From Rickettsiales bacterium (lineage in GTDB: Bacteria > Pseudomonadota > Alphaproteobacteria > Rs-D84), in the NCBI GenBank assembly GCA_031283185.1, contig JAITCH010000010.1:63237-127236 (forward strand): a stretch of DNA of 64,000 nt, read 5' to 3'. A program made the translations under genes and the position numbers. Shown here in pieces: positions 2,869 to 60,010 of the stretch. The notes under the pieces were generated by a model. The model saw nothing but the letters and a program-made list of their open reading frames with translations, was not told the DNA's origin and did not search any database. How positions within the stretch are numbered: position 1 is the stretch's first letter; each line of letters opens with the position of its first letter.

Positions 2869-2897
2869 GTGCACTAAATTTTCCCGACTAGTTTTTA

Positions 2898-2970
2898 GCA
2901 GGTGGGGGTTTCCTGCCCCACACTCATCTCCCCTTGTCATTCCCGCGAAGGCGGGAATCTCAAATTGTTA
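2898..2970. repeat. composite repeat family B copy (degenerate G-rich hairpin + GTCATTCCCGCGAAGGCGGGAATCTCAAATTGTTA), overlapping the 3' end of the GIY-YIG gene
   Basis: Sequence match to 29117-29194 and 55347-55453. Confidence 0.75.
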
Positions 2971-3278
2971 ATTTCCGCTGTTATTCCGGGGCATATATCT
3001 TCGGACAAATCATTCCATTCGGGATTGCTTTCTATTACCAATCGCTGTTTCCAACTTTTATTCCATTTCTTCAACTGCTTTTCCCGCACAACGGCGTGTT
3101 CCATATCTCCTTGAACTTCATACCAAACCAACTTATCCAGGTTGTATCTGTCGGAATGGCTATCCTTGAAAAACCCCGTCTTGTGTTGGTAAACGCGATT
3201 AACCAGGTCGGAGGTTGATCCGATATAGGTTCTGCCCATCCAACAATTAGTCATAATATATACGCAAGGCTGTTTCAT
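2937..3278 (-). CDS. GIY-YIG nuclease family protein (YhbQ/UPF0213-like)
   Basis: Starts VYIMTN...GRTYIGSTSDLVNRVYQHK...KLVWYE, which fits the GIY-YIG core. The last ~10 codons (NNLRFPPSRE) are encoded by the repeat at 2936-2970. Confidence 0.7.
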   Translation of the reverse strand: MKQPCVYIMTNCWMGRTYIGSTSDLVNRVYQHKTGFFKDSHSDRYNLDKLVWYEVQGDMEHAVVREKQLKKWNKSWKQRLVIESNPEWNDLSEDICPGITAEINNLRFPPSRE

Positions 3279-3325
3279 AGGACAAGGCTATCAAATTTTA
3301 TAAGTCCGCATCAAAGGATTTTTTA

Positions 3326-3406
3326 CAATTTGAGATTCCCGCCTTCGCGGGAATGACGACACTTCGTGTCGTTTCTAGCGGGTGGGGGTCGGGAGATCCC
3401 CACCCG
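3326..3406. repeat. composite repeat family B copy in inverted orientation (CAATTTGAGATTCCCGCCTTCGCGGGAATGAC ... GCGGGTGGGGGTCGGGAGATCCCCACCCGC)
   Basis: Reverse complement of the family B consensus. Together with 2898-2970 it brackets the GIY-YIG gene. Confidence 0.75.
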
Positions 3407-3418
3407 CCAAATGGAAAT

Positions 3419-4087
3419 TTATTTTATTTTCTGCTGCCCGACCATTGCCATTAGATTGCGTCTGTCGTCATTATGTAATTCGGGTAAATCCGCACAGGTA
3501 TCGCGGATCAAAGTTTCGAAATATAATCTGTAAGTATCCGAATGTAATTTTTTAATTTTGTTCTTATTGAAATTCAATTCTCCGTTCCGCCGCCGCCGCG
3601 GATAATTTTCCAAATCTTCAATATCTTCCTGTGTTGATTCAATCTGTTCGTCTAGGCAGGCGTTGTGCATACGAATTTCGTAATCGTATGCATTCTTTGC
3701 GACTATTCCATCTGCGCCGACACGGACGATTTCATAGCAGACATCGCGTAAAATTACCGGCTTGATCTTAATTTGGATGCCGATGATCCCGGCTTTGCCC
3801 ATTTTAAGGATTGCATTTTCGAATTTTATATCTTCATCCATTATGTGGGATAGACATTTGGCGTCCTTTGTCCCGTTGGCGCAAAGCCCAAGGGCATTTT
3901 GGAAGATGTCGTTGTTTGATGGATAGTTTAGAAAGATATGTTGTGTTTCCGGGTCAAGTGATTTTAATCCGGCGCGTTCGTCAACGACGCTTTTTGACAT
4001 AGAGTAAATTTCTTGGATAATTTTTACAATTCGGACGGCTTTTAATTGGGTTCGGTTTTCCCAATAGTTTTTTGGCGGTTTGTTCAT
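3419..4087 (-). CDS. hypothetical protein (222 aa)
   Basis: Long ORF divergent from the small paralog pair. No domain is recognised. Confidence 0.45.
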   Translation of the reverse strand: MNKPPKNYWENRTQLKAVRIVKIIQEIYSMSKSVVDERAGLKSLDPETQHIFLNYPSNNDIFQNALGLCANGTKDAKCLSHIMDEDIKFENAILKMGKAGIIGIQIKIKPVILRDVCYEIVRVGADGIVAKNAYDYEIRMHNACLDEQIESTQEDIEDLENYPRRRRNGELNFNKNKIKKLHSDTYRLYFETLIRDTCADLPELHNDDRRNLMAMVGQQKIK

Positions 4088-4231: not shown

Positions 4232-4444
4232 ATGGCACTTTTTGAACTTAATGGGTATTTGGTTGGGAATGACCAATACGGACACTTGAATGTAATAAGA
4301 AAACTTGAAGATGGCGAAAAGGAATGGTTGGGCAAAATGTGCCCGCCGCCACTGCCACAAGAGAATGTCGGCGCGGTATCGAAATTGCTGAATTTTTTAA
4401 GAAAGACTATAGCGGATGCTTCCCGTCAAAGGGCTGTGGCATAA
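4232..4444 (+). CDS. small hypothetical protein (70 aa), first of a tandem paralog pair
   Basis: The ORF starts MALFELNGYLV... and contains CPPP. A -10-like TACAAT lies upstream. Confidence 0.5.
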   Translation: MALFELNGYLVGNDQYGHLNVIRKLEDGEKEWLGKMCPPPLPQENVGAVSKLLNFLRKTIADASRQRAVA

Positions 4445-4456
4445 AGGAGAAAACTG

Positions 4457-4671
4457 ATGGCATTATTTGAGTTAAATGGATTTCTTGTCCATAATGATGA
4501 TTTTGGACAGATAAATGTAATAAGAAAACTGGATGAACAGGAAAAAGAGTGGCTCGGTGGGCTTTGTCCCCCCCCCCATTCGCTAGTGCAGCGGCGAGAT
4601 TAAATACAGAATTCCTGTTATATTTGCGGAATAGGGCGAATATAGATAGTCGGCAAAGGGCTGTGGCATAA
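4457..4671 (+). pseudogene. tandem paralog of 4232..4444, interrupted or phase-shifted at a poly-C(10) tract (present frame stops at 4603)
   Basis: An AAGGAGA RBS sits 7 nt upstream. The N-terminus MALFELNGFLVHNDDFGQINVIRKLDEQEKEWLGGLCPPP parallels copy 1. After the C10 tract (4568-4577), the +1 frame encodes ...NTEFLLYLRNRANIDSRQRAVA, homologous to the copy-1 C-terminus ...NFLRKTIADASRQRAVA. Confidence 0.6.
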
Positions 4672-4697
4672 TAATTGAATAAATTAACGAGGATAAA

Positions 4698-4895
4698 TTG
4701 ACTCTGAAAGAGATTCCTGGCGCATTGATTGCGGTGGATTGTTTGGGTAATGTTGATGTGCGTCATAAGGTGGATAACGAACATAAGTTTAAGCGGACGG
4801 ATGGGACGCATTCGTCCAGCAAGGTTTCGCATCCGACCCCGCTTGATGCGGCGTTGAGCATTTCTAATCTTGCCCATAAAACTATTGCGCGTTAG
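4698..4895 (+). CDS. small hypothetical ORF (65 aa, TTG start)
   Basis: GAGGATAAA precedes the TTG. A strong hairpin terminator follows at 4927-4965. No homology is recognised. Confidence 0.3.
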   Translation: MTLKEIPGALIAVDCLGNVDVRHKVDNEHKFKRTDGTHSSSKVSHPTPLDAALSISNLAHKTIAR

Positions 4896-4926
4896 CCTAA
4901 AAATAGTTGGCGCGACCGATACAACT

Positions 4927-4965
4927 GCCGGAAGGGGTCTCAGAATCCCTTCCGGCATATTTTAT
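4927..4965 (+). terminator. intrinsic terminator-like hairpin GCCGGAAGGGGTCTCAGAATCCCTTCCGGC followed by ATATTTTA
   Basis: A 9-bp GC-rich stem followed by a T-rich tract, read directly from the sequence. Confidence 0.5.
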
Positions 4966-5300: not shown

Positions 5301-7004
5301 TTATTTTGTCATTTTCAGGAATTTTTCGCTGCGTTTGGCGGGCAGGTCATCCGGCTTTTCTTTCGCCAAGGCATCCAACTCTGCGCCAATCGCCTTTGAT
5401 AGATTTTCCATTGTCGTCTGCCAATCCGTATGCGCGCCACCTTCCGGCTCTGCTACAACTTTATCAACAATGCCCAGCGATTTGGCATCCGCCGATGTCA
5501 ATTTTAACGCCTCGGCAGCCTCGGCCTTGAACTTATTGTCCTTCCAACAGATAGAAGCGCAGGATTCCGGCGCAATAACCGAATATACGGCATTTTCCAT
5601 CATCAGCACTCGGTCGCCTGTGGCGATGGCGATTGCCCCGCCGGATCCGCCTTCGCCGACAATGGCTGCGATGTATGGAGTTTTAACTGACAGCCCGACC
5701 TGGATGGAGTTTGCGATTGCTTGGGATTGTCCGCGTTCTTCGGCATCCTTGCCCGCGAATGCGCCCGCCGTATCCACAAGCGACACAATCGGCAGTCCGA
5801 ATTTTTCCGCCAGCATCATAAGCCGTGCGGCCTTGCGATAGCCCTCTGGCGTTGGCATTCCGAATCTGTGCTTGGTTCGCGTTGCCGCATCTCGGCCTTT
5901 TTCTTGCCCCATTATGACGACTGGGCGTCCGCCAAAATATCCGACCCCGCCGATCAATGCCAGGTCTTCGCCGAATTGTCTGTCTCCGGCGAGCGGGATG
6001 AATCCAGAAACCATTCCGTTGATATAGTCCAAAAAGTGTGGGCGGTTTTCGTTTCGCGCCAGCAGGACTTTTTGATAAGCCGGGGGCAGGTCGCTTGCCT
6101 TGGATTCCATTCCGCCGTGATTTGGCGTTGCGATATGCGCGGATTCCTTGTCGCCCTGCTGTTTCATAAGGATGCGTAGGATATTGCCAAGAGTGTCTTT
6201 CAGCGCATCGCGTTTGACGACTATGTCGACCATTCCGTGGTCAAGCAAAAATTCCGCGGTTTGGAAATTGGCGGGTAATTTTTCATGCAGGTTCTGTTCA
6301 ATGACGCGCCGTCCTGCGAATCCGATTCGCGCGCCGCTTTCAGCAATATGAATGTCGCCGATCATTGCAAAGGATGCCGTTACCCCGCCGTATGTCGGGT
6401 CGGCAAGCACGACTATATAAGGCAGCCGTGCATCGCGGAGTTTATTTATTGCGGCGGTGGTGCGTGCCATCTGCATAAGTGATAGTAAATTTTCTTGCAT
6501 TCTCGCGCCGCCGGAACTGGTTATCAATACGAAAGGCTGTTTATGTTTGATGGCGTGTTCTGCGGCGGCGATGATTCCTTCACCGACTGCGCGACCCATT
6601 GATCCGCCGATAAAGTCCATATTCATAACGGCGATGGTTGTTGGAATTCCGCCGACTTCGCCAGTTGCGGCGGCGAGGCCGTCCTTCATTCCAGTTTCAT
6701 CGCGCGCTTCGGACAGGCGGTCTTTATATGGTTTGATGTCGGTAAAGCCCAGCGGATCGTCAACCACGACCGGCATTGGGACGGCGGTAAAATCCAATCC
6801 GTCAAACATCATTTTGAATCGTTGCGGAGGCGTCATTCCGAATATATGTCCACATTTGGGGCATACGCGTAGATTTTTCTTATAGTCTTTATAGAATACT
6901 AATTTTCCGCAAAAGTCGCATTTAATCCACATAAATTTTTTTATGGATTCGTATTTATCATTTTTTTTGATTGGTTCGGCGTCGTTCTTTTTTTTCCAAA
7001 ACAT
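5301..7004 (-). CDS. accD-accA: acetyl-CoA carboxylase carboxyltransferase, fused beta (AccD, zinc finger CDFCGK...CPKCGH) and alpha (AccA) subunits
   Basis: A 567-aa ORF with an AccD N-terminal half and an AccA C-terminal half, both judged by similarity. Confidence 0.9.
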   Translation of the reverse strand: MFWKKKNDAEPIKKNDKYESIKKFMWIKCDFCGKLVFYKDYKKNLRVCPKCGHIFGMTPPQRFKMMFDGLDFTAVPMPVVVDDPLGFTDIKPYKDRLSEARDETGMKDGLAAATGEVGGIPTTIAVMNMDFIGGSMGRAVGEGIIAAAEHAIKHKQPFVLITSSGGARMQENLLSLMQMARTTAAINKLRDARLPYIVVLADPTYGGVTASFAMIGDIHIAESGARIGFAGRRVIEQNLHEKLPANFQTAEFLLDHGMVDIVVKRDALKDTLGNILRILMKQQGDKESAHIATPNHGGMESKASDLPPAYQKVLLARNENRPHFLDYINGMVSGFIPLAGDRQFGEDLALIGGVGYFGGRPVVIMGQEKGRDAATRTKHRFGMPTPEGYRKAARLMMLAEKFGLPIVSLVDTAGAFAGKDAEERGQSQAIANSIQVGLSVKTPYIAAIVGEGGSGGAIAIATGDRVLMMENAVYSVIAPESCASICWKDNKFKAEAAEALKLTSADAKSLGIVDKVVAEPEGGAHTDWQTTMENLSKAIGAELDALAKEKPDDLPAKRSEKFLKMTK

Positions 7005-12422: not shown

Positions 12423-13310
12423 CTAAACCCTTGAAAACTTGCTGCGAAGTTTGTGGCGCAAACTTTTACTTGGAATCGGCATTACAAATATATAAAGAAA
12501 GAAGTTGTATATTGCGTTCGCCAGAAATGTTTTATAAAATGGCGACATTTTCGCATATTTCCACCATATGCCTGACATTCTGGTCGGAAAAAACCAAGGC
12601 TTTTTCCCGGTGTAGTGGATAATACCGATTTCCTTGCCGCGTGCGCGGTCGCAGTGTATGCGAAAGTTGTATGTCGTATCGCCGTCATTGCACATTGCAA
12701 GTTTGCCTTTGAATGCGACACTCATAAGGCCTTGTTCGTATGACAGGTCTTTGTTTTTTAAGATTTCTGCAAATGATTCATAAACTTTGGATTCGCGGAT
12801 TAATTTCAGATTCAGTGCGACTACCCCTGCATTAAATTCGCAAATATCTTTATATGCGGATCGTCTTGCGGACAAATGAAATGCGTTGCCGACTGCAAAC
12901 GCTGCCATATAATTATCACCTAAATCTATATCCGCAAGTTCGTCCAATGGCTTCAATATGATTGTATCATCGTCCAAATGAATAACCCTGTCAATGTTGG
13001 GCAGCAAGCGGTATGAATCCATTTTGTAATAACAGATGCCGCCGCCAAAGGCCATATTTTTATTATAAGGTATGGATGCGTTTTTTTCATCAAAATCAAC
13101 GAACTCAATGGAAGACTCGGCATCTATTCCGGCTACAATTTCTGTCATTTGTTTTTGTGCATCTAAATTTCTGAAAAAATCCGCATTAACTATGCAATGA
13201 ATTGCATAATGTGAATCGCCCTTATTTTTCAATAGCGATATTATGGATACCAAGGTGGTTTTCCACCGCGTATTATCAAAAGTATAAGAGACATCAATAG
13301 TTTTTTTCAT
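12423..13310 (-). CDS. glycosyltransferase family 8 (LPS/LOS glycosyltransferase-like)
   Basis: A DxD motif (HLDDDTI) and the GT8 C-terminal motif IIHYTGKKPW. Confidence 0.8.
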   Translation of the reverse strand: MKKTIDVSYTFDNTRWKTTLVSIISLLKNKGDSHYAIHCIVNADFFRNLDAQKQMTEIVAGIDAESSIEFVDFDEKNASIPYNKNMAFGGGICYYKMDSYRLLPNIDRVIHLDDDTIILKPLDELADIDLGDNYMAAFAVGNAFHLSARRSAYKDICEFNAGVVALNLKLIRESKVYESFAEILKNKDLSYEQGLMSVAFKGKLAMCNDGDTTYNFRIHCDRARGKEIGIIHYTGKKPWFFPTRMSGIWWKYAKMSPFYKTFLANAIYNFFLYIFVMPIPSKSLRHKLRSKFSRV

Positions 13311-22839: not shown

Positions 22840-24204
22840 ATGAAAAGACTTATATCTATTTTATGTGCATTGACATTTATGACTTCTGCGGCGAATGCGC
22901 GGAATCAATATGGCGAATGGAGCCCTGTGGACGATGTCATTAATCATCCAGATTTTGATAATGGTGATTTAAGCGATGAAGCGGCGAATGCGATAAACGC
23001 GGACGAACAGGATGATAAGAACAAGACGGCGTTTCCTGCGGGCTTGCAGTTCGGCGCGGGACTTACGATTATGCCCGGACATAACTGGTTTATTGGATAT
23101 GCGAACAAGGATTTTGAGAGTTTTTGGTGGAAAAGAATCGGCGGCAGGCTGGACTTTACGACCCCGATGTCATTGTCGGCCAGTGCGACCATTCACGACA
23201 AAATCGGGGGGGGGTATGAAGTTGATCCGCACGCGCAGATATGGTTCAAGAAATTTGATTTTGATAAACAAACAATCAAAGAAGACTTTGACCTTGATGA
23301 CGAAACGATCAGTCTTAATGGGTCGAATGCAAAGTTCTTTATGAAGCATAAGAATTTTGGCGCATTGATGGATATTTATCCGTTTGGAAATACTTGGTTC
23401 CTAGGCGGGCTCAGGTTGTCCGGCGGATATTATATGGGCGAATTGATGGCGGATTTTCATACGGATATTCCGTTGGATATTCCGGCACAGGGATTCAAGC
23501 AGCCAATCGGGGCGAATGATGAACTAAGATTCAGAATCCGTAATGGTTCCAAATTTGGAACGACTATTAATTGGAAATATAATGGACCTTATGTTGGATT
23601 GGGTTTTGATTTGGGTTTGTTGTGGGGCGCGAAAATTTATATGGACGCGGGCGCGGTATATACTAAGCCGTTGAAAGTATCTAACAAAAGCCTTATTGAT
23701 GACAAGAACATTTATGTGGACAGCTGTTTCAGAATAGGGGCATCAGGGGCTTGTGAATGGACACAATTATTTGCCGGGATGACTACGCCGAATGTTGACC
23801 AGATTGTTCAGGGTGTTTTAAGCGGGGTTATTGATGCAAAGATACAGACATATTTGACCGGCGATCAACTCATAATTCCTGGCGCAGGCACTTATACTTT
23901 GACTACTGATCAACAAGCAACCATTGGGCAAGACATTACTTACTGGTTATTGAACGGAACGAATGCGAATACTCCTGCGTGGATTACACAACTTACTGAA
24001 ACAAATGCCGATATTGCGAATACAATGAATCAGATTCGAACCGAGGTTGTTGATGACGCGCATAGCGATATTCAGTCTAAAATTGACGAGATTTGGGGCG
24101 ATTACGAGCAGCAAAAGTTGGATGCGGTTAATGATATAAATGATAGTGTGAAAGACTTCCGCATTATGCCTATGATAAAACTGGGCTTTATGTATAGATT
24201 TTAA
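22840..24204 (+). CDS. hypothetical outer-membrane/secreted protein (454 aa), probably a beta-barrel (C-terminal ...GFMYRF)
   Basis: Signal peptide MKRLISILCALTFMTSAANA, and a C-terminal aromatic residue. It contains a G9 tract at 23206-23214. Confidence 0.55.
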   Translation: MKRLISILCALTFMTSAANARNQYGEWSPVDDVINHPDFDNGDLSDEAANAINADEQDDKNKTAFPAGLQFGAGLTIMPGHNWFIGYANKDFESFWWKRIGGRLDFTTPMSLSASATIHDKIGGGYEVDPHAQIWFKKFDFDKQTIKEDFDLDDETISLNGSNAKFFMKHKNFGALMDIYPFGNTWFLGGLRLSGGYYMGELMADFHTDIPLDIPAQGFKQPIGANDELRFRIRNGSKFGTTINWKYNGPYVGLGFDLGLLWGAKIYMDAGAVYTKPLKVSNKSLIDDKNIYVDSCFRIGASGACEWTQLFAGMTTPNVDQIVQGVLSGVIDAKIQTYLTGDQLIIPGAGTYTLTTDQQATIGQDITYWLLNGTNANTPAWITQLTETNADIANTMNQIRTEVVDDAHSDIQSKIDEIWGDYEQQKLDAVNDINDSVKDFRIMPMIKLGFMYRF

Positions 24205-24210
24205 TCTCAT

Positions 24211-24239
24211 AAATCCCCTCCAACGGAGGGGATTTTTTT
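24211..24239 (+). terminator. intrinsic terminator TCCCCTCCAACGGAGGGGA followed by T7
   Basis: Hairpin followed by a T-run directly after the 22840..24204 stop. Confidence 0.75.
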
Positions 24240-26498: not shown

Positions 26499-27503
26499 AT
26501 GAAAAAAATAGATCTTGTATATCTTTGGGTAGATGGCAGCGATGCGAAATGGCAGGCGAAAAAAAATGCCGCATTGAAAAAAGCAGGCATTTATAAAAAG
26601 ACTTCTGCGACATCTGCGAATCGTTGGCGCGATAATGACGAGTTGAAGTATTCGTTAAGGTCTGCGGAAAAATTCGCGCCGTGGATAAATCATATATATA
26701 TTGTGACAGACAGGCAGAAACCAAAATGGTTGAAAGAAAGCGCGCGCTTATCAATTATCAATCACGAACAAATTATGGAAAAAAAGTTTTTGCCGAACTT
26801 TAATGCATCAGCCATTGAAATTAATATATATAAAATTCCAGGGCTTTCGGAACACTTTCTTTATGCGAATGATGATATGTTTTTCGGCCGCCCAGTTAAG
26901 CCGGACTTTTTCTTTGATAGACGGGGTAATCCGATAGTGATTATGACAGGACGAAATAATTGGCGTGCTTTTGCGGGACACAAAACGCGGAATCTCTTCA
27001 AAACAATGAAGTGGAATGCCTTACGATTTGTCCAGCGCGTCTTCGGCGAAAAATATAATTTAACATTCAAACACGCGATAGAGCCATATCGCAAATCGTA
27101 TATGCAGGAAATGGCCGACAAATTTTATAAGGACATAATTGTGCCAAGTATGACGCAATTCCGAGACCGGGCGAATGTGCAGAGAGTTGTATTGCCACTT
27201 ATTGACAATGCGATGGGGCGCAATACGATAATGCTTAATTGGCGCGATGGTAAGAATCGGATAATTTATAATGTCCACCGCGAGCATAGGTTCTGGCATT
27301 TCATTCGTTGGATGTTTGCGGCATTGTTCGGATATATAAAGTATGATTGTTATGACAAGCAGTGGCGGATGAACAAAATTATTCAGAAACGCCACCCAGC
27401 ATTATTTGTGATAAACGATACGGCGGAATCTGATGCTGATTTTATCCGCACTGCGAATTTGATGAACGAAATGTTTCCAAAAAAATCCCAATTCGAAAAA
27501 TAA
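26499..27503 (+). CDS. Stealth-family protein (capsule polysaccharide phosphotransferase-like)
   Basis: CR1-like IDLVYLWVDGSD, and a CR2-like LYANDDMFF. Confidence 0.65.
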   Translation: MKKIDLVYLWVDGSDAKWQAKKNAALKKAGIYKKTSATSANRWRDNDELKYSLRSAEKFAPWINHIYIVTDRQKPKWLKESARLSIINHEQIMEKKFLPNFNASAIEINIYKIPGLSEHFLYANDDMFFGRPVKPDFFFDRRGNPIVIMTGRNNWRAFAGHKTRNLFKTMKWNALRFVQRVFGEKYNLTFKHAIEPYRKSYMQEMADKFYKDIIVPSMTQFRDRANVQRVVLPLIDNAMGRNTIMLNWRDGKNRIIYNVHREHRFWHFIRWMFAALFGYIKYDCYDKQWRMNKIIQKRHPALFVINDTAESDADFIRTANLMNEMFPKKSQFEK

Positions 27504-27594: not shown

Positions 27595-28233
27595 ATGAAA
27601 AAAATTCTTGCCGCATTAATTCTTTGCCCATCCGCCGCATTTGCCATTGAGGCGGATGTTTTGTCGCCCACGCATCGTAGTAATTTCGTTATGCTTTCGG
27701 TCATTCAGCCGAATATAATGTTCAAGACTGATGGCGAATGGCCGGGGCAGCATCACATCAGCGGCACTGGTATGGGCGTGGGTTTTGGGCGGAGGTTTCC
27801 GAATGGTTTTGCGGCGGACTTTGATTTTTCTTCGGTTAGCATAAATTTATTTTCGCCTAGCAAGCAGAATGCGTTGCAGTCGGGATCCTTGATGGGCGGC
27901 GTTATGTATGAGCATAACATTTGGGAAGGCATTGCGCCATATGTGGGTGCGGGTGTTGGCGGTGCGGTATGGGTGAATAATATAAAGTATCGCAATACGG
28001 ATCAGACTGGATTGATAAGCGATTGGTCGGTGCATACTGATACGGCGATGCGCTTAAACTTCGCATATTATGCAAGGGCGGGCGTGTGGGTTGAGTTAAG
28101 TGATCGGTTTGATATGGATTTGGGGGTGCGGTTTCAAGACCTTGGCCGTGCGCCGAATAGATATGGATATTTTGATATAGTTGGGCGGATAACGAATGTG
28201 CAATTCGGTATCGGCGTAGCATATAAATGGTAA
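27595..28233 (+). CDS. small outer-membrane beta-barrel protein (OmpA-like/OMP_b-brl family)
   Basis: Signal peptide, alternating amphipathic segments, and a C-terminal ...GVAYKW. Confidence 0.55.
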   Translation: MKKILAALILCPSAAFAIEADVLSPTHRSNFVMLSVIQPNIMFKTDGEWPGQHHISGTGMGVGFGRRFPNGFAADFDFSSVSINLFSPSKQNALQSGSLMGGVMYEHNIWEGIAPYVGAGVGGAVWVNNIKYRNTDQTGLISDWSVHTDTAMRLNFAYYARAGVWVELSDRFDMDLGVRFQDLGRAPNRYGYFDIVGRITNVQFGIGVAYKW

Positions 28234-33746: not shown

Positions 33747-33776
33747 TTGATTTTTACCGCCATTTCAGACTATAAT
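33747..33776 (+). promoter_or_regulatory. promoter TTGATT-N18-TATAAT placed 6 nt before the ATG (leaderless transcript predicted)
   Basis: Hexamers read from the sequence. The start given in the ORF track is the TTG of the -35 hexamer. Confidence 0.45.
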
Positions 33777-33782
33777 CATTCT

Positions 33783-34343
33783 ATGGCAAAGAATCTTTAT
33801 ATTATCGCAGGTGCAAATGGAAGCGGCAAAACAACGCTTGCCCACGAACTTCTTCGTGAAGAAAAAGACCTGGTCTTTCTCAACGCAGACGAAATCGCAC
33901 GGGAAATCAATGATGATTTGGGTCTTCGTGCGGGTAAAATTGTCCTGGAACGCGCTGACGAATTATTAAAGGCAAAAAAATCGGTTGCTTTGGAATCCAC
34001 CATTTCGGGAAAATATCACGAGCGTCTAATTGAAAAATTCAAGAAATCTGGGTATGAAATTGTCCTAATTTATGTCTTCCTTAATCTCCCGGAACTCAAC
34101 ATTGCAAGAATCAAAAATCGGGTTGCGCTTGGTGGGCACAATGTCCCTGATCAAGATGTCATAAGGCGTTTTCATAAAAGCGTTAAAAATTTTTGGGCGG
34201 CGACAGGGCTTGCCGACCGGTGGAAACTTTATTACAATGGCGATGACAATTATGAGCAGATTGCAGCCGGTCGGGATGATGTCCTTGAAATTCTGAATGA
34301 TGACCTTTATAATCGGTTTAAGAAAGGGCTGAAAAATGGATAA
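33783..34343 (+). CDS. zeta-toxin family P-loop kinase-like protein (COG4185-like)
   Basis: Walker A GANGSGKTT and the family-typical RV.LGGHNVP...IRRF motif. Confidence 0.65.
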   Translation: MAKNLYIIAGANGSGKTTLAHELLREEKDLVFLNADEIAREINDDLGLRAGKIVLERADELLKAKKSVALESTISGKYHERLIEKFKKSGYEIVLIYVFLNLPELNIARIKNRVALGGHNVPDQDVIRRFHKSVKNFWAATGLADRWKLYYNGDDNYEQIAAGRDDVLEILNDDLYNRFKKGLKNG

Positions 34344-40575: not shown

Positions 40576-41139
40576 ATGAAATACATTGCAAATGAAATTC
40601 GTAATGGTTGGGTTATATCGCATAACAGCCGCCGCTTTGTGATAACTGGATTTACAAAGGTAAAGCCCGGCAAGGGCGGCGCGTTTGTGCAGGCGGAAAT
40701 GCGCGATATTGACAGCGGAACAAAAGGAAACGAGCGATTCCGCGCGGAAGATACGATTGAAAAGTTGATGGCAGAGGATATAAAGGCTCAGTTCTTGTAT
40801 TCCGATGCGGACGAATCGTATTTTATGAATTTGGATAGTTATGAGCAGTTCACATTGCCGAACGATAATCTTGGAGACCAGACTAAGTTCCTCGCGCCGG
40901 AAATGGAAGTGGTGGCGAGTTTCATAGAGGGTTCGCCGATGTCCATAACCCTGCCGAAAAATGTGGTGGCGGTGGTTGCAGAAACAGAGCCTGCATTAAA
41001 GGGGCAAACTGCATCCGGCAGCGGCAAGCCCGCGACATTGGATAATGGGGTTCGCGTTTCTGTTCCGACCTTTATAGAGCAGGGCGAGCGGATTGTGGTC
41101 AATACTGAAACATATGAATATGTAGAAAGAGCAAAATAA
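40576..41139 (+). CDS. efp: elongation factor P
   Basis: Length, and the KPGKGGAFV motif around the modified Lys loop. Confidence 0.9.
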   Translation: MKYIANEIRNGWVISHNSRRFVITGFTKVKPGKGGAFVQAEMRDIDSGTKGNERFRAEDTIEKLMAEDIKAQFLYSDADESYFMNLDSYEQFTLPNDNLGDQTKFLAPEMEVVASFIEGSPMSITLPKNVVAVVAETEPALKGQTASGSGKPATLDNGVRVSVPTFIEQGERIVVNTETYEYVERAK

Positions 41140-41766: not shown

Positions 41767-42612
41767 TTGCGGCGTAGTGTCCGCGACATTTTAATTTTTG
41801 GCATAATAAATTATATAAAATTTTTTCGCGCGGCTAAACGCGCAGAACACAAACTTAAATTTCCACATAAACTTTCCATTGTTGCCATCGCAAAAAACGA
41901 AGGCGCAAATTTTCAGGAATGGATTGAATATCATCGCATTGTTGGCGTTGAAAAATTTTATATTTACGATAATGAATCCACTGACGATACGAAAAAAGTT
42001 CTTGAACCATATATAAAATCCGGCGTGGTGGAATACACTTATTTCCCTGGGCAGAAAATGCAAAAGCCTGCTTATGCAGATGGGCTTAAAAAATGCAGAT
42101 TTGATACGAAGTGGGTCGCGCTCATAGACCTAGATGAATTTATTGTCCCGATAAAGCACGAAAAAATTTCCGATTATTTGGACGAACTTCCCGATGATGT
42201 GGGATGCGTTATGGTACCTTGGATTACATATGGATCCAGCGGACATCAAGCCAGACCAATCGGATTGGTTATTGAAAGTTATAAAATGCGTAGTGCGGAT
42301 TTCAAGTTGGGAAATCTCGCGGCGGACAAGCAGTGTAAAAGCATTATTAATCCTCGGTTTGCTATTCGATTGAACGGCGTGCATATAGGCAGCAGCATAT
42401 TGAAAAAGATACGAAGTGATGTGTTAAGGTGCAATCATTATTACAGCAAATCGTGGGAAGAATTCGCTGCTCGCCGATCTAGGGGTGATGTTAGGTTTGG
42501 CAATAATTATGCCCAAGCGACTTTCAACAAAGATTTATTTGATCGTATAAACAGGGATAATTTTTATGACCCAATTATGGATAAATACATCCCGCAATTA
42601 AAAACCATTTGA
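41767..42612 (+). CDS. glycosyltransferase family 92 (DUF23)
   Basis: The AKNE...EWIEYH...FYIYDNESTDDT motif. The TTG start is uncertain. Confidence 0.6.
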   Translation: MRRSVRDILIFGIINYIKFFRAAKRAEHKLKFPHKLSIVAIAKNEGANFQEWIEYHRIVGVEKFYIYDNESTDDTKKVLEPYIKSGVVEYTYFPGQKMQKPAYADGLKKCRFDTKWVALIDLDEFIVPIKHEKISDYLDELPDDVGCVMVPWITYGSSGHQARPIGLVIESYKMRSADFKLGNLAADKQCKSIINPRFAIRLNGVHIGSSILKKIRSDVLRCNHYYSKSWEEFAARRSRGDVRFGNNYAQATFNKDLFDRINRDNFYDPIMDKYIPQLKTI

Positions 42613-42644
42613 AAACTCACTTATACATTGATATAATTCGCATT

Positions 42645-43421
42645 ATGAAAATAATAGTCAGTTTAACATCATTCCCGGCGGCGATTCCGTTTGCGGTGAA
42701 CGCGATAAAAAGCATTATGAACCAAAGCGTTCTGCCGGATAAAATCGTTTTGTATCTGACGGCGGAACAATTCCCCGATAAAAAACTTCCAGCAGAATTG
42801 TTGAATTTAGTAGAATCATCTTCGCTGTTCGAAATCCGTTTTTATTCAGAAAATATTCGTTCATATACGAAACTGATTCCCGCGCTGAAAGACTTCCCGG
42901 ATGACATAATCATAACGATTGATGACGATATAAATTATCCGCGTGATTTGATAAAGAAATTGTTGCGCGCGCATAAAAAATATCCGAATGCGATTGTGGC
43001 GCATCGGGTTCGCCGAGTGCGATGGGATGCTGATGGAAATTTGCTGCCTTATAAGAAATGGGGTCGCTATATGCGATTAAGGTATTATTTATGGTCGTGC
43101 CGTCCACGCCTTTGCAATTTGTTGACTGGTGTGGGTGGGGTGTTGTATCCGCCGCACTCCTTGCCGCCCGAGGCGAGCGATGCCGGAACATTTATGAAAC
43201 TTGCGCCGACTACGGACGACATATGGTTTTGGTTGATGGCGGCCAAGACAGGAACCGGGACTGCCCCGGTCAGATGGGGATTTGTAAATCAACTGGGTGA
43301 TATGCACAAGCCAAGGGATATAACATTAAGTTCGGTTAATATAAAAAGCGCGGTGGATGTGAACCGAGAGAATGCCGAAAAGATAATCGCACATTATAAA
43401 ATCAAAACCCCTATCAAATAA
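42645..43421 (+). CDS. putative glycosyltransferase (DxD-containing, capsule/LPS biosynthesis-like)
   Basis: IVSLTSFP near the N-terminus, and a TIDDD motif. Confidence 0.5.
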   Translation: MKIIVSLTSFPAAIPFAVNAIKSIMNQSVLPDKIVLYLTAEQFPDKKLPAELLNLVESSSLFEIRFYSENIRSYTKLIPALKDFPDDIIITIDDDINYPRDLIKKLLRAHKKYPNAIVAHRVRRVRWDADGNLLPYKKWGRYMRLRYYLWSCRPRLCNLLTGVGGVLYPPHSLPPEASDAGTFMKLAPTTDDIWFWLMAAKTGTGTAPVRWGFVNQLGDMHKPRDITLSSVNIKSAVDVNRENAEKIIAHYKIKTPIK

Positions 43422-43474: not shown

Positions 43475-44077
43475 TTAAAAATTCCACGAAACTCCTAATG
43501 CATAAAAGTCATATACATAATTCATATCGCCAGTGTCGCCGTTGGAAAAATGTTGCATTATTAATTCCAAGTTCCAAGAATCTGTCATACGCCATCCGGC
43601 AACCATTTTGAAAGGCAGAATGAATTTTGTGTTCAGGCGAGCGTTCTGTTTCCCTTGAATGGCGATACCGATTCCGGCACCAAGATATGTGCGTTGGGTC
43701 AGTGCGAATCCGACTTCTTGGGTCAGCACGGCGATTTCATTGCCATATTCTTGCCAGTCGGTGTGTCCAGTCCAAACGGCGTGCTTGCCGTAGTTGTGAT
43801 GACCGAATCCCAGGGTTTTGGTGAAGCCGATTGTTTGCCGACCTGGCAGACGAAAGAAGGTGTTTGGTTGGCTGTATGAAGCGGCAATCATATAATATGG
43901 AACCGGGACATCCAGGTGTTTGAAGAGGATGAGTTCGGCGGAGTCAAAGCCTTGCCCAATGGCGAGTCCCAGTTGATTTTGTTTATCGCCAAAGAAAGGA
44001 TTGAATTTCGTCCCTTCGGTTTCCGCGTTTGCTGCGCCGCATAAAATTGCAAAACATAAAATTATTTTCTTAATCAT
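43475..44077 (-). CDS. PagL-like outer-membrane lipid A deacylase family protein (paralog 1)
   Basis: Signal peptide, YSQPNTFFRLPGRQ, a His-x-Ser catalytic-like motif QHFSNGD, and a C-terminal ...GVSWNF. Confidence 0.55.
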   Translation of the reverse strand: MIKKIILCFAILCGAANAETEGTKFNPFFGDKQNQLGLAIGQGFDSAELILFKHLDVPVPYYMIAASYSQPNTFFRLPGRQTIGFTKTLGFGHHNYGKHAVWTGHTDWQEYGNEIAVLTQEVGFALTQRTYLGAGIGIAIQGKQNARLNTKFILPFKMVAGWRMTDSWNLELIMQHFSNGDTGDMNYVYDFYALGVSWNF

Positions 44078-44322: not shown

Positions 44323-44562
44323 CTAAAAATGTTTTTTAGAAAATAGCCTGCCATTTCCAGTTTTCAAATATGCCTCAAATTTTTCTGCCTTGTCTCTATT
44401 TTCAAATGCAAAATAGTTTTTAATTTTCCAAGGCTTGAATTTGTTTGTATGTATTGAGCATCCTTTGTTATGTTCATTAAGTCGTTTTTTCAGGTCGTCA
44501 GTTTGTCCCACATAAAATCTGTCTGGATTGCTTATGCTTTGTAAGATATATACATAAAACAT
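44323..44562 (-). CDS. GIY-YIG nuclease family protein (80 aa)
   Basis: MFYVYILQS...RFYVGQTDDLKKRLNEHN. Confidence 0.7.
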   Translation of the reverse strand: MFYVYILQSISNPDRFYVGQTDDLKKRLNEHNKGCSIHTNKFKPWKIKNYFAFENRDKAEKFEAYLKTGNGRLFSKKHF

Positions 44563-45465: not shown

Positions 45466-45822
45466 TTAAAACTCCATCAACCTCACTTGCCCGGGGTTGT
45501 ATTGGGACGGCGGAGTGCTGAAAAGCCAATACATTCCAACGAGGAATACTGCACTGACGCCGATGGCAATTACGGCATTATCTTTAATCCAACTGCTTTT
45601 TTGTGATTTGGGTTTATATGCTGTTGTTTGAGGGCAGTAGTAAATGTCCCCATTTTTTTCGGAGCATTGAACATAATTGGTTAGTGGAGTATTACATTGA
45701 ACTTTGTCTGGCTGTTGACCCGGCGCGGTGGGAACCATGCAGTAATTAACGGCATTTGCAGGGGGGGGCGTGAACACCGATATAAGTCCGAAAACCGATA
45801 AAATTGCTAATAATTTCTTCAT
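45466..45822 (-). CDS. small exported Cys-containing protein with a C-terminal TM segment (118 aa)
   Basis: Signal peptide MKKLLAILSVFGLISVFT. It contains the G8/C8 tract at 45762-45769, which encodes PPP. Confidence 0.45.
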   Translation of the reverse strand: MKKLLAILSVFGLISVFTPPPANAVNYCMVPTAPGQQPDKVQCNTPLTNYVQCSEKNGDIYYCPQTTAYKPKSQKSSWIKDNAVIAIGVSAVFLVGMYWLFSTPPSQYNPGQVRLMEF

Positions 45823-45887
45823 AAATGAACTTTCTCATAAATGTCGGTATAGAGTCAATACAAAAATTGCCCGCCACCCCTTTCCTC

Positions 45888-45915
45888 TTGACAAAACGCA
45901 AATACTCGCTACAAT
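45888..45915 (+). promoter_or_regulatory. promoter TTGACA-N16-TACAAT, 7 nt before the ATG (leaderless)
   Basis: Hexamers with the upstream TTTCCTC motif shared by the promoters at 46590 and 48248. Confidence 0.5.
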
Positions 45916-45922
45916 CCCGCTT

Positions 45923-46573
45923 ATGATAAAAAAGACTCCGACTATTTTAATGCGATTTAACCGCTGGCGCGATATAGACGAATGCCTAACCGACACGCAT
46001 TTCTTTGACCCGAAATATCCGTCCATTGGAAAGGATATTTTGGTGGTTGGTGGTGGCGACAGCACATATAGCACATTCGGATATTTTGATTTTAATTGGA
46101 CGAATATAGACCTGAACATCCCGGACGGATATTTCCAAATACCTTGGGTCAAAAGTATCAGGGCTGATTTCATAACGCATTTGGAATTTAATCCTACCGG
46201 GTATGACGAGATTTTGTCCTGGTATGCTTTGCCGTTGTATTCGCCAACTTTTGCATCTGCGTGGTATTTTTATCTGAAAGCGATGAGTCTTTTGCGTCCC
46301 GGCGGACGGCTGCGTGTGGGCGGTGTGCGCCCCGAAGATTATGCGGAATCCAGGAATTCATACCTAAGGAATTCGGATGCGCCGGAAAAGATTGTTCGTG
46401 CGCGGCAAGGGGCGTTGGCGACCCTTGCGAATTGGGGTGCAGAGGTCAAGGAATATAAATATGCGGAAATTATCACGAAACCCCGGTCGGCATCGCTCTT
46501 TAACCACCAGGTTGACGGCGAACTTGGTCGTATGCGGCTTCATATCGCGGATTATAAATTGCAGGTCAAATAG
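45923..46573 (+). CDS. class I SAM-dependent methyltransferase-like protein
   Basis: Rossmann GxGxG motif ILVVGGGDS, and LRPGGRL. Confidence 0.45.
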   Translation: MIKKTPTILMRFNRWRDIDECLTDTHFFDPKYPSIGKDILVVGGGDSTYSTFGYFDFNWTNIDLNIPDGYFQIPWVKSIRADFITHLEFNPTGYDEILSWYALPLYSPTFASAWYFYLKAMSLLRPGGRLRVGGVRPEDYAESRNSYLRNSDAPEKIVRARQGALATLANWGAEVKEYKYAEIITKPRSASLFNHQVDGELGRMRLHIADYKLQVK

Positions 46574-47402: not shown

Positions 47403-47490
47403 CGGAAATCGGTTTGGGTGTGCGGGGGCTTTTGTGCCCCCGCCCTTTTTTTATTTGACATTCAATTGATTCCATTACAAGGTATGGCGC

Positions 47491-47544
47491 AAATTCTCCT
47501 CCTGTGGAGGAGTCCGGGCGAAGCCCGGGAGGTGGGTCTACCAT
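47491..47544. repeat. 5'-half copy of the composite repeat (subfamily with GGTGGGTCTACC core), directly upstream of the DUF559 gene
   Basis: AAATTCTCCTCCTGTGGAGGAGTCCGGGCGAAGCCCGGGAGGTGGGTCTACCAT, identical over 56 bp to 48002-48057. Confidence 0.8.
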
Positions 47545-47564
47545 TAATCCTTGGGCAACAAACA

Positions 47565-47978
47565 ATGTCAATAGTTATTCAATACAATCCAAATCTTCGC
47601 AACAATGCAAAAGCATTACGCAAGGCGGGTATATTATCCGAAATCCTTCTATGGGATCAGATAAAGCGAGGTCAAATAAATGGTCTTGATTTTGACCGAC
47701 AACGAATCATGGGAAATTATATAGTGGATTTCTGCTGCCCAGATACAGGTGTAGTTATAGAGATTGACGGACATTCGCATGACTTTAAGGAACTGCACGA
47801 TACCAAGCGTGAGGAATATCTAAAAAGCCTGGGTCTTGAAACTATACATATCGCGGATATTGATGTTAAGCAAAGTTTAGATGGTGTTGTTGGAATGTTA
47901 AAGGCGCATCCATTTTTGCAAAATCCAATTAAAGATAGAAAATGTGTTTTTATACATAATTCTCCTCTTGTGAATTAG
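47565..47978 (+). CDS. DUF559-family endonuclease-like protein (Vsr/restriction-endonuclease-like fold)
   Basis: ...GNYIVDFCCPDTGVVIEIDGHSHD...EYLKSLGLETIH, the typical DUF559 pattern. Confidence 0.65.
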   Translation: MSIVIQYNPNLRNNAKALRKAGILSEILLWDQIKRGQINGLDFDRQRIMGNYIVDFCCPDTGVVIEIDGHSHDFKELHDTKREEYLKSLGLETIHIADIDVKQSLDGVVGMLKAHPFLQNPIKDRKCVFIHNSPLVN

Positions 47979-52605: not shown

Positions 52606-52694
52606 CAACTAATTCCCCTAAGCGGGCGGGGTAGTTTTTCAATCAAGAATATCTTCCGATTTTATTTGCGCGTTGTGTGTGCGTAAATAATATA

Positions 52695-53270
52695 ATGAAA
52701 AAATTATTATTTCTTATCTGCACTTTACACTTTCCATTCTCCGCCTTGGGTGCGAATCCTATGCTTGGGGACAATCAGAATTCCATCCGCATTGAAGGCG
52801 TGAATATGGTTGATTGGTATGCGCGGGACATTCGGGTTTTTTATCTCAGTTATGCACAGCCGAATATTTTTTTTCGTTTGCCTGGTCAGCGGAATTTACA
52901 AATGGTTTATATCAGCGGTCGGACGAAATATAGCCCGGAATACAGACCTGGGCGATTGCATTCTGTGCAAATGGTGAATGGAGAAACTAGTCGGGATGTA
53001 TCGCAATTTGCGTGGGGCTTGACGCAGGATGTGGTGTTTTTATCTGGCTGGGGATTTTATATGGGCGCGGGGATTGGGCCTTTTGTAAAGGAGTATAAAA
53101 ATGATTATATCGGGACAAAGTTCATAATGGGCGAGCGTTTTTTTGCAGGTTATAGATTGAATAATAGTTTCAATTTGGAATTGGTGGCGCACCATTTTTC
53201 CAATGGACATCTCAGCGCGATGAACAAGGGTCTGGACGGCTTTGGTCTTGGCATTGCCTGGAATTTTTAA
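52695..53270 (+). CDS. PagL-like lipid A deacylase family protein (paralog 2)
   Basis: YAQPNIFFRLPGQRN, HHFSNGH, and a C-terminal GIAWNF. Colinear with the copy at 43475-44077. Confidence 0.55.
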   Translation: MKKLLFLICTLHFPFSALGANPMLGDNQNSIRIEGVNMVDWYARDIRVFYLSYAQPNIFFRLPGQRNLQMVYISGRTKYSPEYRPGRLHSVQMVNGETSRDVSQFAWGLTQDVVFLSGWGFYMGAGIGPFVKEYKNDYIGTKFIMGERFFAGYRLNNSFNLELVAHHFSNGHLSAMNKGLDGFGLGIAWNF

Positions 53271-53283
53271 GGAGTAAAAACAA

Positions 53284-53856
53284 ATGAGAAAAAACATACT
53301 TATACTTTTGGCTGCGATGCTGATAATTGGTGTTGCATCGGTGGCGCGCGGGGCGCGGGAAAATCCATTGTTTGGGGATACGCAAAGCCAGTTTGGACTT
53401 AATGCGGGACATGGTGTTGGCGGCGGGAATATCTGGCGGATGGTTCCGTTTAACGATTGGCGCATAGAGCCGTTTGGAGCGTATTGGGCGGAATATAGCC
53501 AGCCGTTCGAGTTTTTTCGTCTTCCTGCGCGGCAGACTTTGCACGCGGGGATGTTCGCTGGGTATGAAGATATGTCCCGGAATTATACCGAGCCATTTTT
53601 AGGTCTTTCGTGGGATGTAGTGCCGCTTAGTTGGCGCGGAGCGTATGTTGGCGCGGGGCTTGGGGTTTATATAAAGCCGACTTTTCGTGGGCGTCAGGAT
53701 TCGTTGTTGATGTTCGGGGAGAAGTTGTTTGCTGGGTATAGGATAAGCGCGGCGTGGTCGGTAGAATTATGGACGCGGCATTTTGATAGTGGTGGATTGA
53801 CACCGATTAATGGGGGCTATAATTTCTTTGGTCTGTCTGCATTGTATAACTTTTAA
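53284..53856 (+). CDS. PagL-like family protein (paralog 3, His-x-Ser motif altered to RHFDSGG)
   Basis: YSQPFEFFRLPARQT, and a C-terminal LSALYNF. Confidence 0.5.
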   Translation: MRKNILILLAAMLIIGVASVARGARENPLFGDTQSQFGLNAGHGVGGGNIWRMVPFNDWRIEPFGAYWAEYSQPFEFFRLPARQTLHAGMFAGYEDMSRNYTEPFLGLSWDVVPLSWRGAYVGAGLGVYIKPTFRGRQDSLLMFGEKLFAGYRISAAWSVELWTRHFDSGGLTPINGGYNFFGLSALYNF

Positions 53857-58513: not shown

Positions 58514-60010
58514 ATGCAAAAATTTATATTTGGAAGTTTGGCGGTTCTGTTCAGTGCATCTGCTGCGTCTGCGAATACATATTATAATCCTGGGAATGTG
58601 GGTCAGTATAACCAAGGTGGATTTATAGGGCAGGGTAATGCCAGTCAGCAGTATCAACCTCGCGGCGGCGGTTATCAGGGAAATTATCAAGGCGGTGGCT
58701 ATCAGGGTGGCGGCTATCAGCCGCAACAGAATCAGCAATTTCGTCCTTATGGACAGGGCGCGCCCGGCGCGTATGGCCAGCAGAATCGCGGATACGGATA
58801 TGGTCAACAGGGGCAGCAGTCTCGCGGACAGAAACCGCAGGCGAGCAAGGCGTTCGAGTTTGATGTGTTTGCGGGATATGAGGGCGCAGATTTTGGATTC
58901 AATATGAATAGTGCTGGGTCAGAGATTAGCTTTAATAATATCACTTGGCAAAAGATTGGCGCGGCGGGCAAGGGGACATTTGACTTGGGCGGCACGGCTG
59001 TGGAGATAAAGGGCGGATTGGAACTTGGCACGCAGGGCAAGTCCGGCACCGTTACGGACGATGATATGCAGAATGGAGGAATATGGAGTGGCTTTGTATA
59101 TTTCTCAAATGGCGCGCAAGATCCTTCGCTTTTGAATTGGTCTAGTCTGGGCGGCGATAACGAATGGGTCAATTTTGGATCCACAGAATTGGCGTATGGC
59201 GTGGGCGAGCAGGGCAAAGGAAGTTCTCTTGGATTTTTTGCATCTGTTGGTCTGGCGAATGGTTGGACATTGGCGGATAATATAACTTTAAAGCCATCGG
59301 TTGGTTATAGATATGAAAGTTATAAATTGATTGGACAGAATGTTATAACGACATCGGTTCTTGCAATTTTGGGCGAAGGATATGACGAGCAGGGTGTTCC
59401 ATATATGATGGGGGATTTGCAGGCGGTTGCTGATTTCTGTGGGAACGCGTCAAATGCTTGTGATGTTATGGTTGTTTTTGATAAGGATGACATACCTCAT
59501 TTTGTCGGATTTGTTATGGGGCTAGACGATTATGACGAGCCGTGGTTTTTAACTTTGGCTTCGGCGCACGCATTGGATGGCATTACGCATAAGTATGATG
59601 TTGTTTGGGCGGGACCATTTATCGCAGCGGACATAGAGGCGAAGTTGATGCCAAAGATGACGGCGAATATGCGGATTGAAATAGGTTTCCCTGGATATTC
59701 GTCCGAGGCGGATCAGCCGTTCCGTAGTGATTTGGCGCATCCAGTGGCGTTTAGGGATTCTGCGGGAATGTTCAGCGGGATGCATTATGGGTTGATGTTG
59801 GGCTATACGGCGGCGATTACGGACGGGATGTCGGTTGGGTTAGATTGGAAATGGGATTATTATGAAGTTAAGGGTGCGGCGAGCGAGAGTTTCTATGCGC
59901 GTGGTTATCCTGCATATGAGGAACATGGTCCAAGCTTTAAGATTGATAATGAAGTGAATGCCCGGTATAAGCAGTCTGGCCTCCGCGCCACCCTCAAAAT
60001 GAAATTCTAA
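58514..60010 (+). CDS. outer-membrane protein with an N-terminal Q/G/Y-rich low-complexity region (GGYQG repeats)
   Basis: Signal peptide and a ~90-aa QGY-rich region, followed by a predicted beta-barrel ending ...LKMKF. Confidence 0.55.
   Translation: MQKFIFGSLAVLFSASAASANTYYNPGNVGQYNQGGFIGQGNASQQYQPRGGGYQGNYQGGGYQGGGYQPQQNQQFRPYGQGAPGAYGQQNRGYGYGQQGQQSRGQKPQASKAFEFDVFAGYEGADFGFNMNSAGSEISFNNITWQKIGAAGKGTFDLGGTAVEIKGGLELGTQGKSGTVTDDDMQNGGIWSGFVYFSNGAQDPSLLNWSSLGGDNEWVNFGSTELAYGVGEQGKGSSLGFFASVGLANGWTLADNITLKPSVGYRYESYKLIGQNVITTSVLAILGEGYDEQGVPYMMGDLQAVADFCGNASNACDVMVVFDKDDIPHFVGFVMGLDDYDEPWFLTLASAHALDGITHKYDVVWAGPFIAADIEAKLMPKMTANMRIEIGFPGYSSEADQPFRSDLAHPVAFRDSAGMFSGMHYGLMLGYTAAITDGMSVGLDWKWDYYEVKGAASESFYARGYPAYEEHGPSFKIDNEVNARYKQSGLRATLKMKF

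Follow-up and report, generated by a model that had tools for sequence, protein, structure and literature searches.

Long G/C homopolymer runs as candidate slipped-strand contingency loci in an uncultured termite-gut alphaproteobacterium

Three long G/C runs and the genes that carry them

The DNA considered here, referred to below as the window, is a stretch of 64,000 nucleotides (nt) from a 189.5-kb contig (JAITCH010000010.1, positions 63,237 to 127,236; locus tags LBB23_) of a metagenome-assembled genome (MAG) assigned to a Rickettsiales bacterium, and has a GC content of 46.4%. The nearest relatives of the sequence are other termite-gut MAGs, while more distant ones come from the rumen and the human gut, for example "Candidatus Enterousia". 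It was found that the window contains exactly three runs of G or C of at least 8 nt, a C10, a G9 and a G8 (Table 1), and in this work we examine them as candidate slipped-strand contingency loci. An earlier note on this stretch had drawn attention to the same three runs. Its positions for the C10 and the G9 were correct, as was its reading of the G9 as GGG GGG GGG within the frame of the 454-codon gene; the G8 does exist and does encode three prolines on the opposite strand, but had been placed one base too high, at 45762-45769.

Table 1. Long G/C runs in the window and in its nearest relatives, with their host genes and an adjoining hairpin. Positions in rows marked L005, L006 and L008 are those of the respective relative's locus.
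Feature	Position	Strand	Remarks
C10 homopolymer	4568..4577	+	copy 2 out of frame (OFF-like)
Copy 1, LBB23_03070	4232..4444	+	intact 70-amino-acid paralog
Copy 2, LBB23_03075	4457..4671	+	annotated as 48 amino acids; frameshifted at C10
G9 homopolymer	23206..23214	+	in-frame GGG GGG GGG = Gly123-125, ON configuration
LBB23_03180, 454-amino-acid outer-membrane beta-barrel protein	22840..24204	+	MDR2685748.1
Intrinsic-terminator-like hairpin and T7 run	24211..24239	+	11-bp stem, -16.7 kcal/mol, z = -3.1
C8 on coding strand (G8 on +)	45761..45768	-	CCC CCC CCT = Pro19-21, ON configuration
LBB23_03325, 118-amino-acid exported protein	45466..45822	-	signal peptide, four Cys, C-terminal membrane helix
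L005 G10	within GT92 glycosyltransferase gene 2882-3785	-	next to dnaK; gene split into two frames; G9 would restore
L006 G9	3858-3866		in TTGATT-18-TAGGCT spacer, 30 nt upstream of the start of the intact orthologous GT92 gene
L008 C9	17683-17691		in TTGACA-17-GATAAA spacer ahead of a transporter gene
L005 G9			in-frame VGGG in the ortholog of window gene 45920..46573

The G9 starts 366 nt into the open reading frame (ORF) of LBB23_03180, at codon 123, and the loss of a single G leaves an outer-membrane product of 167 amino acids (aa) instead of 454, while the gain of one leaves 126 aa. The protein carries a signal peptide (N-terminal MKRLISILCALTFMTSAANA) and ends in ...GFMYRF; no Pfam family was matched at E<=0.01, and its 382 homologs, the closest of which is 50% identical, all belong to uncultured gut Alphaproteobacteria. 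An AlphaFold model built with 46 sequences (pLDDT 83) gave a beta-barrel with long paired strands and a helix-rich insertion of about 160 residues (approximately 275-440) before the last strand, and the best matches among solved structures in a Foldseek search were the 8-stranded barrels CarO (E 1.5e-4, target TM-score 0.59), OmpW and TtoA. The signal peptide, the antiparallel barrel and the C-terminal aromatic residue expected of such barrels are all present, and LBB23_03180 shares with these three proteins its signal peptide, its beta-barrel and its terminal Phe. It differs in its lack of a Pfam match and in the helix-rich insertion, and its identity to CarO is only 11-17%.

In the model Gly123-125 form a tight turn between strands 99-120 and 126-134, which by the usual topology of outer-membrane proteins would be the second extracellular hairpin. 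In the family alignment only the Gly preceding Tyr126 is conserved, the remainder of the turn being variable in both length and sequence, and no tract was found at the site of the G9 in the orthologous outer-membrane proteins, where the Gly loop varies. In-frame G8 or C9 tracts do occur, at other positions, in three family members that are more distant (L087 9980-9988, L116 759-766 and L123 5944-5951, encoding APPPA, NGGGV and MGGV). These account for 3 of the 8 long G/C runs in 1.47 Mb of relatives' sequence, of which genes of this kind make up about 10%. The possibility that the G9 is an Illumina poly-G artefact was rejected, as the run is in frame, lies in an ungapped alignment to homologs and is present in a second assembly. 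A hairpin resembling an intrinsic terminator lies directly after LBB23_03180, although a scan for the terminator consensus did not list it, and a frameshift in the barrel gene should therefore not be polar on the downstream dnaK.

The C8 lies in LBB23_03325, where Pro19-21 fall inside the signal peptide immediately ahead of the ANA|V cleavage motif (...FTPPPANA|V). A change to C7 shortens the exported product from 118 to 46 aa, and a change to C9 shortens it to 25 aa. Neither a word-indexed search nor Pfam returned a match for this protein; a full HMMER search retrieved 11 distant homologs (E 7e-9 to 2.5e-4), which share the pattern of cysteines, the transmembrane helix and the conserved C-terminus (...PGQVRLxEF); their conservation does not extend to the PPP segment. 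Export of both the 454-aa and the 118-aa host protein is thus supported. A role of the G8 in the promoter of the divergent gene was also considered and rejected, because some 120 nt beyond the run there is a promoter close to the consensus, TTGACA-16-TACAAT (45888-45915). Gene callers disagree at 45770-45822, where the Logan caller omits the 118-aa gene in favour of a 267-aa GTG ORF (45770..46573) overlapping its start; the position of the near-consensus promoter suggests that the plus-strand gene really starts near 45920.

The C10 lies among three small orphan genes arranged in tandem across 4232-4895, encoding 70 aa, a frameshifted product of 70 or 71 aa (48 aa according to NCBI) and 65 aa. 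As far as ...EWLGxxCPPP copy 2 agrees with copy 1, and at the C10 it drops out of frame; the intact copy 1 encodes its Cys-Pro-Pro-Pro motif by TGC CCG CCG CCA. The N-terminal 40 codons of copy 2 lie in one frame and the C-terminal 31 codons in the -1 frame, ending in ...SRQRAVA* at 4671, and a change of the C10 to C8 or C11 restores a protein of 70 or 71 aa that is collinear with copy 1. Over the N-terminal 40 codons the two copies differ with a pS of 0.80 and a pN of 0.22 in the annotated frame only, which indicates purifying selection on this part and that copies 1 and 2 are therefore real coding genes. The C-terminal part of copy 2, read in the shifted frame, gave a weaker coding signal (pS 0.69, pN 0.51). 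A minus-strand ORF of 183 aa (4407..4958) was considered as an alternative host of the C10 and rejected, since three annotated small genes lie opposite it on the plus strand and since the excess of synonymous over nonsynonymous change appears only in the plus frame. The proteins of copies 1 and 2 have no signal peptide and, in a word-indexed search, no homolog outside the contig, and the 70-aa protein has no Pfam match. It was also observed that the two copies, although saturated at synonymous sites, share an identical 18-nt 3' end, CAAAGGGCTGTGGCATAA (4427-4444 and 4654-4671; 0.11 expected by chance), which suggests either a constraint at the nucleotide level or gene conversion at the junction of the stop codon and the ribosome-binding site of the next gene.

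The frameshift at the C10, like that at the G10 of the relative L005, may also be read as an assembly or sequencing consensus error or as a fixed pseudogenising mutation, in which case the C10 would be uninformative on switching. Indel errors are known to increase with homopolymer length, NCBI annotates just a 48-aa stub, and copy 2 is an orphan whose C-terminal half is strongly diverged from copy 1. However, the C10 is the same in two independent assemblies of the run, the frame downstream of it stays open for 31 codons and reaches the same SRQRAVA* end as copy 1, Arg and Ser residues in this C-terminus were kept through multi-base synonymous changes, and the frameshift falls exactly at the tract, as it does in L005, a locus from another sample. 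Taken together these observations make an error or a dead gene an unlikely account of the C10.

It was further considered that full-length copy 2 might be made by recoding, either through slippage of RNA polymerase on the C10/G10 or through -1 slippage of tRNA-Pro on ribosomes stalled at polyproline, which would turn the tract into a device for constitutive low-level expression. Ribosomes stall at PPP motifs, the translation of which depends on EF-P, slippage at homopolymers is established, an efp gene is present in the window (40576..41139), and a -1 shift on an all-C run would give the 71-aa product. On the other hand, transcriptional slippage is best documented for A/T runs, inspection identified no downstream stimulatory structure or conserved slippery heptamer, copy 2 has no orthologs in which the frameshift could be seen to be conserved, and recoding is inapplicable to the in-frame G9 and C8, so that we regard it as highly improbable.

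Long runs against chance in the window and in its relatives

The earlier note had estimated that about one run of at least 8 nt would be expected in the window by chance, and three models bear this figure out. A model of independent bases gave 1.07 runs of at least 8 nt and 0.27 of at least 9, a second-order Markov model 0.75 and 0.17, and resampling of synonymous codons according to the window's own usage 1.23 and 0.32, with 0.09 runs of at least 10, compared with 3 and 2 runs observed at the first two thresholds. The corresponding Poisson probabilities were 0.04-0.09 for three runs of at least 8 nt and 0.01-0.03 for two of at least 9, and those from codon resampling 0.12, 0.038 and 0.08 for runs of at least 8, 9 and 10 nt. 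Pooled codon resampling was used in place of a synonymous permutation within genes, which proved uninformative in that the C10 came back in every shuffle, because the tiny genes keep their only Pro codons. Considered alone, the window's excess of G/C runs is thus suggestive, not decisive.

The shorter runs in the window behave differently from the long ones. G/C runs of at least 6 nt are depleted in the window's coding sequence (9 observed against 14.4 expected from codon resampling), and G/C runs of 5-7 nt are much below the expectation from composition, while A/T runs of 6-8 nt are abundant. There are 148 A/T runs of at least 6 nt against 13 of G/C, yet none of the former is longer than 8 nt (Fisher P=0.018). 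A strong excess of G over C on the plus strand was also noted (16438 G and 13248 C).

The loci fetched from relatives served as a control for composition. The window was grouped with its three nearest relatives (L005, L006 and L008; 128 kb in total), whose DnaK proteins are 86-88% identical. This cut is a natural one, since the next homolog is at most 39% identical. In this clade the lengths of G/C runs are distributed bimodally (74 runs of 5 nt, 14 of 6, 1 of 7, 1 of 8, 4 of 9 and 2 of 10), and 6 runs of at least 9 nt were observed against 0.86 expected from independent bases or 0.22 from the second-order Markov model (P 3e-4 to 1e-7), values that refer to the 128 kb sampled and that are weakened by a choice of grouping made when the tracts were already known. 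Among 150 distant relatives (1.47 Mb) the distribution falls monotonically (740 runs of 5 nt, 131 of 6, 18 of 7, 5 of 8, 2 of 9 and 1 of 10), with 3 runs of at least 9 nt observed against 1.8-3.1 expected, and the clade differs from the rest in its share of long runs (Fisher P=1e-4). The four long tracts in the three nearest relatives lie in or ahead of genes for a GT92 glycosyltransferase, a transporter and the ortholog of a window gene (Table 1), the promoters in L006 and L008 being matches to a sigma-70-like consensus only. The GT92 tracts of L005 and L006 are at different positions and are therefore of independent origin.

These counts bear directly on the alternative that the runs are neutral by-products, produced by synonymous drift of Gly3 and Pro3 motifs in a genome of 46% GC, tolerated but unselected, never switching and no more numerous than chance would have them. 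The three runs of at least 8 nt in the window, against 1.07-1.23 expected (P 0.09-0.12), are in keeping with such an origin; so are the lack of an excess in the distant relatives, the in-frame position of both the G9 and the C8, and the fact that 3 of 3 tracts encode GGG or PPP in poorly conserved segments, namely a loop turn, a signal peptide and a linker. Drift of this kind does not readily account for the clade, where lengths of 7-8 nt are nearly absent, lengths of 9-10 nt are present and runs of at least 9 nt are 7- to 27-fold above expectation, nor for the independent tracts at the same GT92 gene in two relatives or the OFF-frame examples located exactly at a tract (copy 2 and the L005 GT92 gene). 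Moreover, GGG and CCC are minority codons in the window (19% of Gly and 16% of Pro codons), and all-GGG encoding is found in just 1 of its 18 Gly-Gly-Gly tripeptides, that of the outer-membrane protein, the 17 others avoiding it. Pro-Pro-Pro occurs five times, and two of the five begin with CCC CCC. We regard a neutral origin of the tracts as less likely than not.

Possible slippage and switching, and the points that weigh on them

If the runs are indeed contingency loci, the nascent and template strands would mispair within the run during replication, so that one G:C pair would be gained or lost at a rate far above that of point mutation, and wherever the run lies inside a reading frame such a one-base change would flip the gene between a full-length (ON) and a truncated (OFF) product. 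The sequenced population would then represent one combination of states, with the barrel gene (G9) and the exported-protein gene (C8) ON and copy 2 (C10) OFF. The tract lengths of 8-10 nt reach or exceed the cut-off of at least 7 that is used for poly-G/C phase variation, a change of one base alters the product at the G9, the C8 and the C10 alike, and two of the hosts, the barrel and the 118-aa exported protein, belong to the envelope. We do not claim that the runs are members of the class of contingency loci, which is defined by reversible variation in tract length within a population or among close strains; they are candidates by tract length, placement and, in part, over-representation. A weak or absent mismatch repair would favour switching, although it is not strictly a defining feature, and among the annotated genes of the window there is no mutS or mutL. 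We infer that the tracts slip at useful rates and that selection maintains them for switching. Weighing all of this, we consider slipped-strand contingency loci the best reading of the runs, with about an even chance of being right. The mechanism in itself is classic, and novelty would be confined to the genes concerned and to the lineage, that of uncultured termite-gut Alphaproteobacteria.

Several observations weigh against this reading. The G9 and the C8 do no more than encode Gly3 and Pro3, motifs in which 9-mers are known to arise neutrally by synonymous drift. For runs of at least 8 nt the excess in the window alone is marginal and falls short of significance (P about 0.1). The C10 lies in a gene whose product is not a surface protein, and either a consensus error or plain pseudogenisation could explain the frameshift there. 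All four of the tracts found in genes of the outer-membrane protein family are in frame, so that an OFF allele of the focal gene has not been seen and this gene is known only as ON. Finally, no length polymorphism was observed in the only independent data, the Logan assembly of run SRR14710906. The contigs of this assembly carry the window sequence with identical lengths of the G9, the C10 and the G8, and are unbroken through all three tracts, so a balanced mixture of lengths was not present in the sample. Neither the protein search nor the GTDB species genomes nor the JGI metagenomes contained a strain in which the outer-membrane protein is between 50% and 100% identical. Pairs of ON and OFF states are represented by one allele per gene, with copy 2 OFF beside its intact paralog and the L005 GT92 gene OFF while its L006 ortholog is intact.

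The suggestion of the earlier note that the runs fit contingency loci is partly supported, by tract length, by placement, by the OFF-like frame at the C10 and by the bimodality of the clade, but not by a significant enrichment of runs of at least 8 nt within the window alone. Nor did its statement that all three runs lie in surface or exported proteins survive, since this is true of only two of the three; the C10 host has no signal peptide and its N-terminus is acidic and not hydrophobic.

At the level of the clade, it may tentatively be proposed that the termite-gut group formed by this MAG together with the lineages Cyl330_bin36, Coa324_bin6 and Emb289P3bin18 maintains a "phasome" like that of Campylobacter, made up of G/C tracts of 9-10 nt that were gained independently in different genes and promoter spacers and that would act as random switches for an outer-membrane barrel, small exported proteins, GT92 glycosyltransferases and a transporter. 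If this is true, a system of this kind would have been inferred for the first time in this part of the Alphaproteobacteria, and from metagenomes alone. Should the tracts switch, a gut symbiont would diversify its surface (an outer-membrane protein, an exported peptide and glycans) in the stochastic manner that has been documented mostly in vertebrate pathogens, strong fluctuating selection by phage, protist grazing or host factors would be implied in the termite gut, and homopolymer-frameshifted "pseudogenes" in such MAGs should not be counted as gene loss. Should they not switch, the tracts would be an ordinary result of codon drift in Gly3 and Pro3 motifs.

Neighbouring genes and comparison with known systems

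The window is rich in envelope genes, which include glycosyltransferases of families GT8 (12423-13310), GT92 (41767-42612) and GT2 (42609-43421), three paralogs with similarity to PagL, that is, with a lipid A 3-O-deacylase fold (43475-44077, 52677-53270 and 53284-53856), an Opacity-like barrel (27595-28233) and a Pom-like outer-membrane protein with GGGYQ repeats (58514-60010). The gene that follows dnaK (26499-27503) belongs to the Stealth family and resembles capsule phosphotransferases; its first 25 codons contain an A7 (codons 2-3, 26502-26508) and an A8 (26559-26566), and the equivalent position after dnaK is taken in relatives by the tract-bearing GT92 gene. On the minus strand (5301-7004) a single ORF of 567 aa fuses the AccD-like half (zinc ribbon and carboxyltransferase beta) and the AccA-like half (carboxyltransferase alpha) of the acetyl-CoA carboxylase carboxyltransferase. 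Scattered among housekeeping genes are a Zeta-toxin-like gene (33747-34343), a GIY-YIG gene (44323-44562) and a DUF559 gene with a Vsr-like endonuclease fold (47418-47978), which may be remnants of mobile or defence elements. Several neighbouring proteins of the window had no match in Pfam.

Homopolymeric tracts have been described as general devices of gene inactivation, as in the case of the poly-A tract of inlA in L. monocytogenes (Orsi et al. 2010, PMC2831843). In inlA, as proposed here, the tract lies in the 5' part of a gene for a surface protein and leads to a reversible truncation; that work differs in that it concerns A/T tracts, which in the window do not exceed 8 nt. A second kind of switch is represented by the poly-G of Neisseria porA and opc and the poly-C of Bordetella fim, in which the homopolymer lies in a promoter spacer. 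The L006 G9 and the L008 C9, placed in spacers of 18 and 17 nt between -35- and -10-like elements, resemble these switches, but such spacer tracts were found in the relatives only, while 3 of 3 tracts in the window are intragenic.

The closest parallel to the arrangement proposed here is the "phasome" of Campylobacter jejuni and C. coli, with similar systems in Neisseria, Helicobacter and Haemophilus. Among the phase-variable poly-G/C tracts of Campylobacter, to which a cut-off of at least 7 is applied, 53% are G9 and 26% G10 (PMC6321876). The present host differs from Campylobacter in being an uncultured gut alphaproteobacterium with a GC content of 46%, at which chance tracts are far likelier than at 30%, and in that one of the host genes is a small, cytoplasmic-looking orphan. 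In the Campylobacter phasome, as in the sequences described here, G/C runs lie within genes or promoter spacers, and their lengths have a mode at 9-10 nt, as in the clade of the window. Genes are turned ON and OFF there by frameshift, as is predicted for the present tracts, and the bias of the phasome towards outer-membrane proteins and glycosyltransferases has a partial parallel in the barrel gene and the GT92 genes.

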